A DNA stretch of 64,000 bases from Eledone cirrhosa. Its lineage: Eukaryota. Shown here piece after piece: positions 7,975-50,987 of the stretch. The translations under genes and the position numbers were made by a program. Below the pieces are notes generated by a model. That model was not told the DNA's origin, did not search any database, and saw nothing but the letters and a program-made list of their open reading frames with translations. The stretch's first letter is position 1; every line of letters starts with the position of its first letter. The stretch covers positions 20,584,001-20,648,000 of the forward strand of contig OZ024762.1 of assembly GCA_964016885.1 (NCBI GenBank), in the 5' to 3' direction.

Positions 7975-9905
7975 ACCTCCACTCATCCATGTTTACATGG
8001 GTTGGATCGGTTTTTTGTCCAGTACAACTTCTCCATTTGTTGCCTTCTTTTATCACCTCGTCTGTGAGGTGCAATAAATTCAGACAAGTTCTCACAACCT
8101 CGGCCCAGGTTTTCCTCGGTTTTCTTCTATTGAATAAATTCAGACAAGTTCTCACAACCTCAGCCCAGGTTTTCCTCGGTTTTCTATTGAATAAATTCAG
8201 ACAAGTTCTCACAACCTCGGCCCCAGTTTTCCTCAGTCTTCTATTGAATAAATTCAGATTCAGACAAGTTCTCACAACCTCGGCCCCGGTTTTCCTCAGT
8301 CTTCTATTGAATAAATTCAGACAAGTTCTCACAACCTCAGCCCAGGTTTTTCTCAGTCTTCTATTGAATAAATTCAGACAAGTTCTCACAACCTCGGCCC
8401 TGGTTTTCTTCGGTTTTCTTCTATTGAATAAATTCAGACAAGTTCACACAACCTCGGCCCAGGTTTTTCTCAGTCTTCTATTGAATAAATTCAGACAAGT
8501 TCTCACAACCTCGGCCCTGCTTTTCCTCAGTTTTCTTCTATTGAATAAATTCAGACAAGTTCACACAACCTCGGCCCAGGTTTTTCTCAGTCTTCTATTG
8601 AATAAATTCAGACAAGTTCTCACAACCTCGGCCCTGGTTTTCCTCAGTTTTCTTCTATTGAATAAATTCAGACAAGTTCTCACAACCTCGGCCCCGGTTT
8701 TCCTCGGTCTTCTATCGAATAAATTCAGACAAATTCTCACAACTTTGGCCCAGGTTTACCTTGGTCTTCTATTGAATAAATTCAGATAAGTTCACACAAC
8801 CTCGGCCCAGGTTTTCCTCGGTCTTCTATCGAATAAATTCAGACAAATTCTCACAACTTTGGCCCAGGTTTACCTTGGTCATCTATTGAATAAATTCAGA
8901 TAAGTTCTCACAACCTCGGCCCAGGTTTTCCTCGGTCTTCTATTGAATAAATTCAGACAAATTCTCACAATCTCGGCCTAGGTTTACCTTGGTCTTCTTC
9001 TATTTCACTTCTTCACCCAATGATCTTCATCCATATATATCAGTTCTTCTGAGAGCCTCAGTCATTTGAGATCAGCTCTGACAACCTCTGCCTAGGTCAT
9101 CCTCAGTCTTCTCTACTGCACCATCCTTCCATTGGGATTTCTTGACACTTATTCACCAAACAATCATCATCTATATTCATTACATCTCCATACCAGTGCA
9201 GTCTTCTCTCTCACATACTACTGCTTCCTCAGTCTTCTTCTATTGCAGCTTCCTTCCACTAGTATTTCTTGGCCCTTTTTCACCCAATGATCATAATCCG
9301 TATACATCGCCTCTTGAGTGAGCTTCAGCAATTTGAGATGAGCTCTCACAACCTCTGGCCTGGTCTTCCTTGGTCTTCTACGACTGCAGCTTCCTTTCAC
9401 TGGGATTTCTTTGCACTTCTTCACCTAATAAATCATCCTCTATATGCATTACATGCCCATACCAGTGCAGTCTTCTCTCATGCATATTACTGCTTAACCT
9501 TCTTATACACAGTTTTTATCTTTGTTCATCCATGCTTTATCATTTATGTACATAAATATTACACTTCCATTGAAGCATGCTTGCTTCATTTCTCTCCAGC
9601 CTTCATATATCCTCAACATTCACTGCCCACGTCTCACTACTTTGCATCATCACACATCACACACAAACATCATACAGTTGGTCTTTTTTTTTTTCCCAAA
9701 GAAACCTTTTGTTGTCAATAGAGGTAGCAGTTCCCTGAATTTTTTCTATCCTGTTTATATTCTAGCAACTATGTTCTCAGATCAACCTCTTCCACTGCAA
9801 ATTTCATCACCTAGGTAGCTGAAACTATTGATCAATTCTATTGAACCTTCCTGGAATTGGAAAAAGGTTATTTTGTTGGTAATCTTTCTAACAACACTCC
9901 CTGTT
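7975..9905 (-). mobile_element. decayed RTE LINE 3' region with internal ~57-bp tandem amplification (8072-9000)
   Basis: Minus-strand translations RRKPRKTWAEVV (repeated), RRRPRKTRPEVV and GSIELINSFSYLGDEICSGRG match the LINEs at 22230-22568 and 30509-31432. Confidence 0.85.
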
Positions 9906-19912: not shown

Positions 19913-20318
19913 ATACATACATATATATATATATATATATGAATTATAGGAGCCCACTTGAATATATATCTGTTGATGGTATACAAGCTCCTACATAAAT
20001 TGGTATAATTTCACCCAAATTGTAGGAGTCCTATAATGAAATGAGACGTCCGTCTGGGAAGAGATATATTAGATATGTCTGATATGAAATAATACAGCCA
20101 ATTTTCCACGCAATACTTTTAGTTAGCACCCCGAACGCATAATTGGGAATATAATCCCTTATTTCCTAATTTTTGATGAGTGAGTTGGAATTTGCCCGGA
20201 GTATCGCTAAAAAGCTTTCTCTGATATTGTATTTATTTATATATATATATATAATCAACAACAAAGAACGCTTAGAGCATAGGTACGTCTTTACTTGCTA
20301 ACAGTGTTTCGTCCACAC

Positions 20319-21550
20319 TGTGTGGACGAAACACTGTTAGCAAGTAAAGACGTACCTATGCTCTAAGCGTTCTTTGTGTGGACGAAACACTGTTAGCAAG
20401 TAAAGACGTACCTATGCTCTAAGCGTTCTTTGTGTGGACGAAACACTGTTAGCAAGTAAAGACGTACCTATGCTCTAAGCGTTCTTTGTGTGGACGAAAC
20501 ACTGTTAGCAAGTAAAGACGTACCTATGCTCTAAGCGTTCTTTGTGTGGACGAAACACTGTTAGCAAGTAAAGACGTACCTATGCTCTAAGCGTTCTTTG
20601 TGTGGACGAAACACTGTTAGCAAGTAAAGACGTACCTATGCTCTAAGCGTTCTTTGTGTGGACGAAACACTGTTAGCAAGTAAAGACGTACCTATGCTCT
20701 AAGCGTTCTTTGTGTGGACGAAACACTGTTAGCAAGTAAAGACGTACCTATGCTCTAAGCGTTCTTTGTGTGGACGAAACACTGTTAGCAAGTAAAGACG
20801 TACCTATGCTCTAAGCGTTCTTTGTGTGGACGAAACACTGTTAGCAAGTAAAGACGTACCTATGCTCTAAGCGTTCTTTGTGTGGACGAAACACTGTTAG
20901 CAAGTAAAGACGTACCTATGCTCTAAGCGTTCTTTGTGTGGACGAAACACTGTTAGCAAGTAAAGACGTACCTATGCTCTAAGCGTTCTTTGTGTGGACG
21001 AAACACTGTTAGCAAGTAAAGACGTACCTATGCTCTAAGCGTTCTTTGTGTGGACGAAACACTGTTAGCAAGTAAAGACGTACCTATGCTCTAAGCGTTC
21101 TTTGTGTGGACGAAACACTGTTAGCAAGTAAAGACGTACCTATGCTCTAAGCGTTCTTTGTGTGGACGAAACACTGTTAGCAAGTAAAGACGTACCTATG
21201 CTCTAAGCGTTCTTTGTGTGGACGAAACACTGTTAGCAAGTAAAGACGTACCTATGCTCTAAGCGTTCTTTGTGTGGACGAAACACTGTTAGCAAGTAAA
21301 GACGTACCTATGCTCTAAGCGTTCTTTGTGTGGACGAAACACTGTTAGCAAGTAAAGACGTACCTATGCTCTAAGCGTTCTTTGTGTGGACGAAACACTG
21401 TTAGCAAGTAAAGACGTACCTATGCTCTAAGCGTTCTTTGTGTGGACGAAACACTGTTAGCAAGTAAAGACGTACCTATGCTCTAAGCGTTCTTTGTGTG
21501 GACGAAACACTGTTAGCAAGTAAAGACGTACCTATGCTCTAAGCGTTCTT
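20319..21550 (+). repeat. perfect 56-bp tandem array, 22 copies, each carrying the 3' half of a hammerhead motif
   Basis: Unit TGTGTGGACGAAACACTGTTAGCAAGTAAAGACGTACCTATGCTCTAAGCGTTCTT; 1232 bp / 56 = 22. An inverted copy lies immediately upstream (20249-20318). Confidence 0.95.
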
Positions 21551-21727
21551 TGTTGTTGATTATATTACGGCTCTGTCCTCAGACATCGAGCTAACCTTAT
21601 ACTGCCTATTGGATAAGTGGAGTGTTACACACTCCTGATCCTCTCCCTTATATACTATATATATATATATATATAATGGCGTAGGATAGAAGAAAGGAAA
21701 GGCACAGAAACGAAGAAAGAAATCCCC

Positions 21728-21772
21728 AGTCACTGAAGAGGTCACAGAGTGTGTGACGAAAGAACTATGACT
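21728..21772 (+). ncRNA. minimal type I hammerhead ribozyme motif
   Basis: AGTCA-CTGAAGA-G-GTCACA-GAGTG-TGTGAC-GAAA-GAAC-TA-TGACT, with perfect stems I and II. Confidence 0.85.
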
Positions 21773-21987
21773 ATATATATATAAACAACTATCTGGTTGT
21801 GGAACCAACCAACCAACCAGAAATTTATAAATTTGTAAATTTATAAATATATATTAAATTAAATTGAAGTGAAAGCAACTGGTGCGTGTGTTTCTTATTG
21901 GCAACATGACCCTCCCAAAGTATAACAATATCGGTTTCAACACACGATTTCAGATAAAGAATCTTGCTAAACAAATTCAGAAACGAA

Positions 21988-25917: not shown

Positions 25918-27081
25918 GACATTTGATAGAACTACAACCTACTCTGACATTTGATAGAGCTACAGTGTACTATGACATCTTATAGAACTACAGTGTACTA
26001 TGACATCTGATAGAGCTACAATATACTATGACATTTGATAGAGCTACAATATACTATGACATCTGATAGAGCTACAATATACTATGACATCTGATAGAGC
26101 TACAATATACTATGACATCTGAGAGAGCTACAATATACTATGACATCTGATAGAGCTACAATATACTATGACATCTGATAGTGATACAATATACTATGAC
26201 ATCTGATAGAGCTACAATATACTATGACATTTGATAGAGCTACAATATACTATGACATCTGATAGAGCTACAATATACTATGACATCTGATAGAGCTACA
26301 ATATACTATGACATCTGATAGAGCTACAATATACTATGACATCTGATAGAGCTACAATATACTATGACATTTGATAGAGCTACAATATACTATGACATCT
26401 GATAGAGCTACAATATACTATGACATCTGATAGAGCTACAATATACTATGACATCTGATAGAGCTACAATATACTATGACATCTGATAGTGATACAATAT
26501 ACTATGACATCTGATAGAGCTACAATATACTATGACATCTGATAGTGATACAATATACTATGACATCTGATAGAGCTACAATATACTATGACATCTGATA
26601 GTGATACAATATACTATGACATTTGATAGAGCTACAATATACTATGACATCTGATAGTGATACAATATACTATGACATCTGATAGAGCTACAATATACTA
26701 TGACATCTGATAGAGCTACAATATACTATGACATCTGATAGAGCTACAATATACTATGACATCTGATAGAGCTACAATATACTATGACATCTGATAGTGA
26801 TACAATATACTATGACATCTGATAGTGATACAATATACTATGACATTTGATAGAGCTACAATATACTATGACATCTGATAGAGCTACAATATACTATGAC
26901 AGCTGATAGAGCTACAATATACTATGACATTTGATAGAGCTACAATATACTATGACATCTGATAGAGCTACAATATACTATGACATCTGATAGAGCTACA
27001 ATATACTATGACATTTGATAGAGCTACAATATACTATGACATCTGATAGAGCTACAATATACTATGACATCTGATAGAGCT
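25918..27081. repeat. 28-bp minisatellite, about 41 copies
   Basis: unit TACAATATACTATGACATCTGATAGAGC with GTGA/TTTG variants. Confidence 0.95.
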
Positions 27082-27424
27082 AGGCAGGGAGGGGTGGGGA
27101 GAGGGCGCAAAGAGGGCAGGGAGAGGGTAAGGGGAGGACGGGGAGAGGACAGGGAGAGGGGAGGGACAGGACAGGGACAGGGCAGGGAGAGGGCGGGGAC
27201 AGAGGATTATTCAAGAACCGAGAGCATATGCCAAACACCTACAACCTATGTTCTTTATGTAATTGTGAAAACCCTAAGATCTGACCCCGAAGAACTTTGT
27301 GTGTCTTTCTAAAACATTAGCTCTTCATGCTGAAGACTTTCTTCCAAATAACAGAGAAACAAAAAGCTATCAAATACTTAAATGATCTCCAATGTTTTTA
27401 GATACTTACATACATGCATACATT

Positions 27425-44262: not shown

Positions 44263-45235
44263 CATTAAACAAATTAGACACATGTTGAGGGTATCAATGG
44301 AACCAGGGAAACCGTTTTATATAAATTAAACACGTGTTTAGGGTATCAAGGAGAAAATGGGCACTGTTTTATATAAATTAAACACATGTTTAGGGTATCA
44401 AGGAGAAAAGGGGCACTGTTTTATATAAATTAAACACATGTTTAGGGTATCAAGGAGAAAAGGGGCACTGTTTTATATAAATTAAACACGTGTTTAGGGT
44501 ATCAAGGAGAAAAGGGGCACTGTTTTATATAAATTAAACACATGTTTAGGGTATCAAGGAGAAAAGGGGCACTGTTTTATATAAATTAAACACGTGTTTA
44601 GGGTATCAAGGAGAAAAGGGGCACTGTTTTATATAAATTAAACACGTGTTTAGGGTATCAAGGAGAAAAGGGGCACTGTTTTATATAAATTAAACACATG
44701 TTTAGGGTATCAAGGAGAAAAGGGGCACTGTTTTATATAAATTAAACACATGTTTAGGGTATCAAGGAGAAAAGGGGCACTGTTTTATATAAATTAAACA
44801 CGTGTTTAGGGTATCAAGGAGAAAAGGGGCACTGTTTTATATAAATTAAACACATGTTTAGGGTATCAAGGAGAAAAGGGGCACTGTTTTATATAAATTA
44901 AACACGTGTTTAGGGTATCAAGGAGAAAAGGGGCACTGTTTTATATAAATTAAACACGTGTTTAGGGTATCAAGGAGAAAGGGGCACTGTTTTATATAAA
45001 TTAAACACGTGTTTAGGGTATCAAGGAGAAAAGGGGCACTGTTTTATATAAATTAAACATATGTTTAGGGTGTCAAATGACCAAGGGCACTGTTTTATAC
45101 AAATTAAACATATGTTCAGGGTGTCAAGGAGGACAGGGGCACAGTTTTATTGACATTAAACACATGTTTAGGGTATCTAATGATCAAGGGCACCGTTTTA
45201 TATAAATTAAACACATGTTTAGAGTATCAAGGAGG
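44263..45235. repeat. 52-bp minisatellite, about 18 copies, homogeneous in the centre and decayed at the edges
   Basis: unit GTTTAGGGTATCAAGGAGAAAAGGGGCACTGTTTTATATAAATTAAACACRT. Confidence 0.95.
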
Positions 45236-47584: not shown

Positions 47585-47971
47585 ATATACATATATATGT
47601 GTGTATGTGTAAAAATATGCATGCACACACATTTATACACATACATACACATATACTATTTATTTTTCTCCTTTTGTTGTTGATATTTTTGATTCCATTT
47701 CATTACTGATTTCATCTTCTTTGTTTTGGGGTTTTTTTTTGGTTTTTTAAAATATTTTTGAAATATTTAAAATTTGGCATTTTCAACTTCTGAAAGAATT
47801 GATGACAAAAAACACCCCCCAAAAAAACAGAAATATAGACAAAATTAAAAAATAAAAGGGAAAATAAAAATGTGTAATGGAGTCTGCGTGGTGCAGGGTA
47901 GAAGAGGGGATAAAATATTTATTTTCTGCTAAATTAAACTTAGACAATAAATCTTAATTTTAGATTTGCTT

Positions 47972-50129
47972 TGTAAAAGAGAACCAACAATTTTATGTCT
48001 CTCTCTGTGGCCTCTAGCAATGAAATATTTCTCTACAATAAACATATTTCCTTGTGTAAAAGAAACCCAACAATTTTATGTCTCTCTCTGTGGCCACTAG
48101 CAATGAAATATTTCTCTACAATAAACATATTTCCTTGTGTAAAAGAAACCCAACAATTTTATGTCTCTCTCTGTGGCCTCTAGCAATGAAATATTTCTCT
48201 ACAATAAACATATTTCCTTGTGTAAAAGAAACCCAACAATTTTATGTCTCTCTCTGTGGCCACTAGCAATGGAATATTTCTCTACAATAAACATATTTCC
48301 TTGTGTAAAAGAAACCCAACAATGTTATCACGTCTCCCTCTGTGGCCACTAGCAATGAAATATTTCTCTACAATAAACATATTTCTTTGTGTAAAAGAAA
48401 CCCAACAATTTTATGTCTCTCTCTGTGGCCACTAGCAATGAAATATTTCTCTACAATAAACATATTTCCTTGTGTAAAAGAAACCCAACAATTTTATGTC
48501 TCTCTCTGTGGCCTCTAGCAATGAAATATTTCTCTACAATAAACATATTTCCTTGTGTAAAAGAAACCCAACAATTTTATGTCTCTCTCTGTGGCCACTA
48601 GCAATGAAATATTTCTCTACAATAAACATATTTCCTTGTGTAAAAGAAACCCAACAATGTTATCACGTCTCTCTCTGTGGCCACAAGCAATGAAATATTT
48701 CTCTACAATAAACATATTTCCTTGTGTAAAAGAAACCCAACAATTTTATGTCTCTCTCTGTGGCCACTAGCAATGAAATATTTCTCTACAATAAACATAT
48801 TTCCTTGTGTAAAAGAAACCCAACAATTTTATGTCTCCCTCTGTGGCCACTAGCAATGAAATATTTCTCTACAATAAACATATTTCCTTGTGTAAAAGAA
48901 ACCCAACAATTTTATGTCTCTCTCTGTAGCCACTAGCAATGAAATATTTCTCTACAATAAACATATTTCCTTGTGTAAAAGAAACACAACAATTTTATGT
49001 CTCCCTCTGTGGCCACTAGCAATGAAATATTTCTCTACAATAAACATATTTCCTTGTGTAAAAGAAACCCAACAATTTTATGTCTCTCTCTGTGGCCACT
49101 AGCAATGAAATATTTCTCTACAATAAACATATTTCCTTGTGTAAAAGAAACCCAACAATTTTATGTCTCTCTCTGTGGCCTCTAGCAATGAAATATTTCT
49201 CTACAATAAACATATTTCCTTGTGTAAAAGAAACCCAACAATTTTATGTCTCTCTCTGTGGCCACTAGCAATGAAATATTTCTCTACAATAAACATATTT
49301 CCTTGTGTAAAAGAAACCCAACAATTTTATGTCTCTCTCTGTGGCCACTAGCAATTAAATATTTCTCTACAATAAACATATTTCCTTGTGTAAAAGAAAC
49401 CCAACAATTTTATGTCTCTCTCTGTGGCCACTAGCAATGAAATATTTCTCTACAATAAACATATTTCCTTGTGTAAAAGAAACCCAACAATTTTATGTCT
49501 CTCTCTGTGGCCACTAGCAATGAAATATTTCTCTACAATAAACATATTTCCTTGTGTAAAAGAGAACCAACAATTTTATCATGTCTCCCTCTGTGGCCAC
49601 TAACAATGAAATATTTCTCTACAATAAACATATTTCCTTGTGTAAAAGAAACCCAACAATTTTATGTCTCTCTCTGTGGCCACTAGCAATGAAATATTTC
49701 TCTACAATAAACATATTTCCTTGTGTAAAAGAAACCCAACAATTTTATGTCTCTCTCTGTGGCCTCTAGCAATGAAATATTTCTCTACAATAAACATATT
49801 TCCTTGTGTAAAAGAAACCCAACAATTTTATGTCTCTCTCTGTGGCCACTAGCAATGAAATATTTCTCTACAATAAACATATTTCCTTGTGTAAAAGAAA
49901 CCCAACAATGTTATCACGTCTCTCTCTGTGGCCACTAGCAATGAAATATTTCTCTACAATAAACATATTTCCTTGTGTAAAAGAAACCCAACAATTTTAT
50001 GTCTCTCTCTGTGGCCTCTAACAATGAAATATTTCTCTACAATAAACATATTTCCTTGTGTAAAAGAAACCCAACAATTTTATGTCTCTCTCTGTGGCCA
50101 CTAGCAATTAAATATTTCTCTACAATAAA
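47972..50129. repeat. 83-bp satellite, about 26 copies, with recurrent 86-bp variants
   Basis: unit TGTAAAAGAAACCCAACAATTTTATGTCTCTCTCTGTGGCCACTAGCAATGAAATATTTCTCTACAATAAACATATTTCCTTG. Confidence 0.95.
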
Positions 50130-50987
50130 CCTATATTGCAATATCAGTGAATATTTCTATAATATAAATTACTATGGTGACTACCAGCACCAGCAATCGT
50201 CATCAACACCACCACCACCATCACAACAACTACCATCACTGCCACCATCACCACCACTAACATCACCAGCACCATCACTACCACTACCATTACCATTACC
50301 ATCATCACCACCACCATCACCACCACTAGCATCATAGCCAGCACCACCACCACCACCACTACCAGCAACAGCACCACCAATAGCCATCAACAGAATAGAA
50401 AAAAAAGAGAGAATTGCTCAGTGATGCATGTGAAAAATGGAAGCAATGAAAAGAAGAGAAGATTTGAAATATAAAACAATGAAGCCAATTAGAGTGTTGT
50501 GTGAAGATTTCATCAATGAGACTTTCACGTTGGAACAACAAAATCTCCATAGAATAGCAACGTTAACAAAATTCCCCAAATCCCTCTACTTCATGTTTCC
50601 TGTCCCAAACATTCATACACACCACCCAGTACATGTTAGGTTCAAGGGAATAATGTAGCTACAATAATGATGTTGTATTTGAAATAATGTGTTGGATGAT
50701 AGCGATAGATTTAACAGATCATCTGATCTGTTTTGATCCTTTTGATAGCAAACCACCTGACACCACTCCTGGGCAAAGGCATGACTAGGTAAAATAGCAC
50801 CTATGGCAAGCAGTGAAATTGCACCCCTACCCAGCACTGTATTTTTACCTATGGGTTTAATAATTTATATAAATTGTTTAATGACCCAGCCACCATAGTG
50901 TTCTCATCCGTGATAATCAGAGAGAGATCATACATCTGAAGGAGTTTTTTTGCTTTTCACTTTCCGACAAGATTTATTTGATTTTAA

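Follow-up and report, generated by a model that had tools for sequence, protein, structure and literature searches.

Organization of the array locus

The window (the whole stretch of 64,000 nucleotides that was analyzed) contains a head-to-tail repeat of a transposable element (TE) segment, found at this single locus, in which exact 56-bp periodicity extends over 20319-21553 and the unit is present in 22 exact copies at 20320+56n. TRF reports 22.1 copies with 100% match and 0 indels. On one side the array carries an inverted arm of 70-71 bp, and (TA)n runs enclose the whole insertion at both ends. The initial annotation had described 22 mismatch-free 56-bp copies beside an inverted arm, a description confirmed by the exact periodicity, TRF and the alignment of the arm. 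The features of the locus are as follows, where r-numbers denote positions on the 5,069-bp unit of the parent element, as defined by the spacing of its tandem copies.

20238..20253, no strand: left (TA)n target run, from sequence; shares TA microhomology with the start of the arm, which it overlaps; family copies sit in (TA)n
20249..20319, minus strand: inverted 5'-truncated pLTR arm, r4980 to r4910 of the 5,069-nt parent
20319..20319, no strand: apex of the head-to-head junction (r4910/r4911), bordering the native stem II loop on its 3' side, with a 1-nt spacer
20320..21551, plus strand: 22 identical 56-bp units (r4911-r4966), from TRF, periodicity, genome-wide junction search and parent alignment
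21527..21528 (last-unit coordinates), plus strand: two-base allele carried by all units and by the arm, from genome-wide allele search
21552..21654, plus strand: resumed pLTR (r4967-r4980) and 89-nt tail to the family's second end, r5069, from family comparison
21656..21675, no strand: right (TA)n target run, from sequence

In reverse complement, 20249-20318 matches the last unit and the resumed element over 70 nt, and a perfect palindrome with arms of 58 bp is centered on 20319. The resumed element 3' of the array measures 103 bp up to the right (TA)n run. Of a hammerhead ribozyme, each unit has the 3' strands of stems II and I, with GAAAC, stem III and the predicted cut between them, and CTGANGA is found in none of the units. 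Across the 3.0-Gb genome, 21 occurrences of the unit junction were found, all of them at the array locus. Elsewhere, the two-base allele was detected in one insertion only, a ∼47-bp fragment in TA repeats (L036/L220; 24 matches, 23 of them at the array locus), and since it is common to the arm, all units and this other insertion, it was inherited from the source element and does not represent a local mutation. A scan of the window against Rfam gave 0 matches at gathering score.

The left flank (19945-20235) is a young high-copy repeat that ends in TA, copies of which are 97% identical (1,845 candidates), and the right flank (21680-21810) is a very high-copy repeat with contig depths of 1e5-1e6 in sequencing run X1. 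At 21566-21584 (r4970-r4998 region) the tail resembles an intron 3' end, with a branch-like YTRAY kept in both alleles and followed by a pyrimidine run and CAG.

Read evidence for the array

The read comparison covered four of 23 runs, searched with one stretch holding one unit junction. No read or contig lies over the unit junction in any of the four, and in X1, a run kept as contigs and possibly derived from the assembled sample, the contig with the two-base allele follows the exit path unbroken; both observations speak for an assembly artifact or an inflated copy number. Coverage gaps of this kind are, however, no proof, and graph simplification could explain the missing junction contigs. 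X4 has no depth on the element and is hence uninformative on the junction, and the deep RAD reads over the unit, which share a single start place and carry the parent allele, are likewise uninformative, with none in X21 and X22 attributable to the array. The depths in X1 argue against an artifact: the allele-bearing contig stands at 85.2 vs. 334.5 for the parent allele, a ratio of 0.25 between contig depths, which are not copy numbers, and from the assembly a ratio of no more than 0.34 is predicted if the array is present and of about 0.03 if it is absent, so that the ratio seen fits a multi-copy variant. Neighboring arrays, moreover, keep their unit variants. An artifactual or inflated array is considered very improbable.

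The parent element and its hammerhead ribozyme

The array derives from a 5.07-kb Penelope-like element (PLE) that carries Hydra-clade motifs and whose type I hammerhead is intact. A 28-mer from the hammerhead 3' half has 117 exact matches in the genome, 23 of them at the array locus; the family sample consisted of 73, and then 37, stretches among the matches listed, and the resumed part of the element is 96-99% identical to genomic copies. One copy, L111, which is frameshifted at both ends, encodes a 696-aa frame consisting of a reverse transcriptase (RT) followed at the C terminus by a GIY-YIG endonuclease (EN), with YRDD and IVY..YIG motifs. Its RWR, DKT, CxCX5C, CxxC and CxH motifs agree with the description of the Hydra clade, for which RWK-like, DKT and CxCX5C motifs have been reported, along with CxxC and CxH around the E and N of the endonuclease and a (TA)n target (PMC8557442). 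From these motifs, the parent is assigned to the EN+ PLEs with Hydra-clade motifs. In the Atlas, neighbors of the parent ORF (0.94-0.97) have RVT_1 and HTH_animal in some of their members, and Pfam and PDB sequence searches with the same ORF gave no significant match. Three full tandem 5,069-bp parent units and an inverted arm are found at L110-L112 (G000:C4:265.03-265.05 Mb), where an asparagine-rich stretch separates RT from endonuclease in the ORF.

The proposal that the array reads as the 3' half of a PLE hammerhead was borne out, as 93 of 96 family motifs (73 stretches, among the matches listed) have CTGANGA upstream; the other three represent two truncations and one point variant. The parental hammerhead has stem I TGCT/AGCA and the triplet GTT or GTC, and in the minimum-energy fold of the monomer stem I is not formed. 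Established hammerhead numbering predicts that the cut falls before r4930, after unit base 19. The hairpin that had been quoted as stem II is instead the apex of the large palindrome; native parental stem II is bulged, with a 5-nt loop, and its 3' strand alone survives at the array locus. The unit does not begin inside a hairpin loop, as had been stated, but just 3' of the native loop. The 3-nt TGT microhomology said to bound the unit exists with respect to the folded locus only; against parent copies it shrinks to GT, 2 nt.

Shape of the insertion

Among the matches listed, family copies terminate within TA runs at either r4980 or r5069, frequently with one end per side, and r4980, the outer end of the arm, is the family's common tail-less end, which recurs in many copies. 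Tandem and inverted insertions with an optional tail and a 5,069-bp tandem spacing are present in the family. Among the matches listed, 46 head-to-head junctions were counted, 10 of them within 15 nt of symmetry, after removal of seven duplicate or overlapping stretches and in a count that misses the short or low-complexity L185, L119, L144 and L206 and misplaces L091. Two loci, L192 and L200, are array-free look-alikes of the array locus. The arm, tail and TA target of the array locus are the normal insertion shape of the family. One short two-armed insertion was observed in six segmentally duplicated places (L132, L133, L136, L141, L203, and L204).

This shape is shared in many respects with described EN+ PLEs of the Hydra type, including the RT and GIY-YIG parent, the type I hammerhead in the pLTR, the two alternative 3' ends, the head-to-head palindromic junction and the (TA)n target (PMC8557442; PMC3846280; PMC11167929). 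The layout of an inverted 5'-truncated pLTR with a tail is known for PLE insertions (PMC8557442), two RT start sites have been reported (PMC11167929), and palindromes at inverted PLE junctions, also noted in PMC8557442, have been read as self-priming (PMC3846280). The element differs from those described in its 89-nt tail (30-40 nt in the published text available) and its 5.07-kb unit, Hydra elements being generally under 3 kb. A junction-anchored 22-copy array is not among the PLE features given in the available portions of PMC8557442, PMC3846280, and PMC11167929. A role for stem II in the fold-back is possible at most, since fold-back by stem II complementarity predicts a 5-nt spacer and 1 nt is present.

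Relationship of the array to the hammerhead

The array is not tied to the hammerhead. A triple tandem of GGACGAAAC has 24 matches genome-wide, at three loci, of which 20 lie at the array locus, compared with 131 for the reversed control, and the other two loci are without hammerhead context. A broader tandem pattern gave 124 matches genome-wide vs. 767 for its reversed control. These figures are match counts dominated by large arrays, from patterns that admit units of up to ∼100 bp and leave out 4-nt stem III loops; by these counts tandem 3' halves are rarer than their reversed controls, and a general reiteration of hammerhead halves is not seen. The broader pattern corresponds to ∼16 loci among the matches listed, 12 of which were examined, and three of these derive from PLE-type pLTRs (L232, L233, and L237). 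A sister family, of at least 1,477 copies, repeats the motif within 120 nt at two loci only.

The suggestion that arrays start preferentially at stem II loops was not supported. In a hand-curated list from which breakpoints due to allele differences were removed (including L090, L110, L119, L145, and L214), 5' ends fall at the stem II loop at three loci including the array locus, where about one is expected (P about 0.07, and about 0.25 without the array locus), and among 99 segments of the sister family none of 21 ends does so. Counter to the absence of a hammerhead link, the triplication at L232 starts in the stem II loop at its junction.

A different clustering of 5' ends was observed around the predicted cut, at r4928-4936, where eight family loci (L151, L185, L192, L193, L200, L207, L219, and L220) were found vs. 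1.1-1.3 expected (P about 3e-5 to 7e-5 in the hand-curated list), two of which join through a palindromic 4-mer. This clustering is absent in the sister family, with 2 ends vs. 1.6 expected. The cut-region ends suggest that ribozyme-cut RNA sometimes serves as template, whereas an in vitro PLE study, in the available text, records no reads ending at the cut (PMC11167929). The array locus runs 19 nt past the predicted cut, so its own template would have been uncut.

The position of the cut also bears on circular RNA. A tiny circle had been offered as one possible source of the tandem copies; a circle made by the ribozyme, as for retrozymes, is not supported and was rejected on junction position, the predicted cut lying inside the unit and not at the unit junction. 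A spliceosomal lariat was likewise rejected, as a branch A is required and none is present at the junction. More generally, rolling-circle reverse transcription, with a 56-nt RNA circle or lasso as template, would yield identical units as observed, but retrozyme circles close at the ribozyme cut (PMC7229834), which is internal here, the unit is without CTGANGA, and the tail lies outside the unit and would need a template jump. In addition, the arm is without repeats and the unit junction occurs nowhere else in the genome. Rolling-circle synthesis is accordingly held to be a highly unlikely source of the array.

Relationship of the array to the insertion junction

The array is probably tied to the junction. 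Its start coincides with the insertion junction, and the seed therefore probably dates from the insertion. Private duplications at junctions are also seen away from the hammerhead. An analogue is L104:7255-7882 (G000:C4, near 77.35 Mb), in which a TA run, a 68-bp arm, an apex, a 35-bp unit in two copies and the rest of the element follow one another; the apex there lies ∼370 nt upstream of the ribozyme. L109 carries 12 bp in two copies at its junction, and imperfect or short junction copies are present at L091, L114, and L189. With a symmetry cut-off chosen after the fact and the array locus left out, exact private duplications were found at 2 of 12 near-symmetric junctions vs. none of 33 others (P = 0.067; 0.019 with the array locus).

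In the sister family, which is likely Hydra-like (1,477-2,577 exact motif matches), irregular junction stutters were detected at L232 (three copies, spacings of 22 and 23; G000:C4:150733800), L275 (G000:C7:46753934; a multi-round stutter), L246 and L291. An automated search for exact duplications in 14 short head-to-head spans of this family gave no convincing case, with one 9-nt simple-sequence match. Alternative end joining by polymerase theta is known to produce templated insertions, in which local sequence is recopied at the break (PMC2895639), and resembles the array in recopying at a junction on very short homology; its insertions are short and irregular (3-8 nt), unlike the 22 exact 56-mers seen here. 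The junction copies at the other loci look similar to such templated insertions and may be the work of either the RT or a host polymerase.

The initial interpretation is upheld in part, in that the seed probably belongs to the insertion, the array starting at the junction and being young; a ribozyme-made circle is not supported.

Proposed origin and expansion of the array

The preferred reading, to which a probability of about 0.5 is given, is a 5'-truncated head-to-head PLE insertion in a TA microsatellite, with a 56-bp duplication likely seeded at the joint and likely expanded to 22 copies by ordinary minisatellite processes. The parent element, the arm, the tail, the TA target, the unit boundaries and the start of the array at the apex are observed, and the steps that lead from one to the other are reconstructed. 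Both target ends would have primed DNA synthesis at TA-rich sites of the uncleaved element RNA (r5069 and r4980), and the halves would have been joined head-to-head at r4910/r4911, possibly helped by the self-complementarity of stem II. During joining or early repair a polymerase (the element RT or a host end-joining polymerase) may have realigned once by 56 nt on a 2-3-nt overlap, after which slippage or unequal exchange would have enlarged the two-copy seed beside the perfect palindrome. The array is free of variants and its insertion very young; the ribozyme half in the units is expected to lack activity, and no function of the array is evident.

Visible multi-round stutters at other junctions are short and irregular, vs. 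21 identical junctions here, which favors expansion at the DNA level. At L237, a pLTR-derived array of 65 bp × 9.1 (99%), the eight units printed, of about nine, share a substitution that neither their own arm nor L233 has, an indication that the expansion followed the insertion; two changes there are private to single units. Minisatellites are also dense in this genome, with 36 arrays of period at least 25 and at least five copies in 794 kb, 11 of them in the window; some are duplicated, two at 99%. Those in the window include 958-1318 (36 bp × 10), 8073-8998 (57 × 16), 25918-27082 (28 × 42), 44271-45234 (52 × 19) and 47964-50134 (83 × 26). The other window minisatellites have 87-96% identity and none has an inverted arm. 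Against the preferred reading, the present array is the sole 100%-identical one of the 36 sampled and the sole one with a real inverted arm. A single burst would predict just what is seen, zero variants over 1,232 bp in an insertion of very young age; intermediate copy numbers are not known for the array locus, and the link between symmetric apex and duplication is weak (P = 0.067 without the array locus).

The alternative that the array was written in a single insertion event, with the RT realigning at the folded-back apex or running round a tiny RNA loop for 21 more 56-base additions, is possible but is considered the less probable account. In its more specific form, the PLE RT or a host end-joining polymerase recopied 56-58 nt 21 extra times at insertion, with a fixed block and realignment at the apex in the manner of telomerase. 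Such reiteration would account for the perfect unit identity and the array starting exactly at the junction; a fixed apex and a fixed block could yield identical units, iterative stutters occur at other junctions (L232 × 3, L275), and the PLE RT is the sister group of TERT (PMC8557442). The homology available for realignment to the parent or arm template is, however, only 2 nt, and identical units are compatible with a telomerase-like product but not diagnostic of one. A single long array was found among about 1,570 hammerhead 3' halves in two families, and reiteration is not reported in the available text of an in vitro PLE study (PMC11167929). This specific form is rated as rather unlikely.

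In an entirely post-insertional origin, replication slippage on the TGT overlap, of which the apex base is a part, would have been triggered by the completed palindrome, with expansion to follow. In favor of this account, the 3-nt overlap exists only once the junction is formed and the palindrome folds at -71.9 kcal/mol as DNA; the third base would nevertheless match by chance one time in four, and similar duplications occur at asymmetric junctions without an apex palindrome (L232, L246). It seems quite improbable that the seed, too, arose after the insertion.

Precedents and related arrays

Duplication of a TE segment, possibly by microhomology-mediated repair, and its subsequent expansion is a known route to minisatellites and satellites (PMC9659126; PMC12628747), and the array follows the same course under the preferred reading of a junction seed expanded as DNA. 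It differs from the TE-derived repeats in the available text of these reviews in that its seed lies exactly at a retro-insertion junction and that it is so far variant-free. The word Penelope is absent from the main text of both reviews, a literature search of partial coverage found no report of a junction-anchored array in a PLE, and the available parts of PMC11702581 and PMC12910113 hold nothing decisive on the array. The array is interpreted as a genuine TE-derived minisatellite of young age, anchored at the head-to-head junction of a PLE; conversion of TE to repeat is known, and no description of this variant was found in the literature searched.

The starts of tandem arrays are rarely seen, and here the source element, the junction and a two-copy analogue (L104) are all readable, so that an origin of minisatellites at the head-to-head junctions of PLEs becomes testable. 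Had the 22 copies been made in one step, the locus would show repeat-addition activity in the nearest relatives of telomerase and be a genomic fossil of a satellite made at once; otherwise it would neatly illustrate a process already known, without consequence for function.

The array resembles metazoan non-LTR retrozymes in being a tandem PLE-pLTR-related sequence with hammerhead bases (PMC7229834; bioRxiv 10.64898/2026.07.22.740005). Each retrozyme tandem unit holds a full ribozyme (bioRxiv 10.64898/2026.07.22.740005), and retrozyme monomers are bounded by ribozyme cuts and dispersed over many loci, whereas the unit here is 56 bp vs. about 300, carries only one half of the ribozyme, does not have the cut as its boundary and occurs at one locus, so that the array is not classed as a non-LTR retrozyme. 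The arrays at L237 (G000:C23, near 19.25 Mb; 65 bp × 9) and L233 (G000:C6, near 84.80 Mb; 73 bp × 5) belong to another pLTR family; both hold the two halves of the hammerhead core and may be minimal retrozyme-like arrays. L237 was seeded on an 8-nt direct repeat, and a derived base is common to its units.
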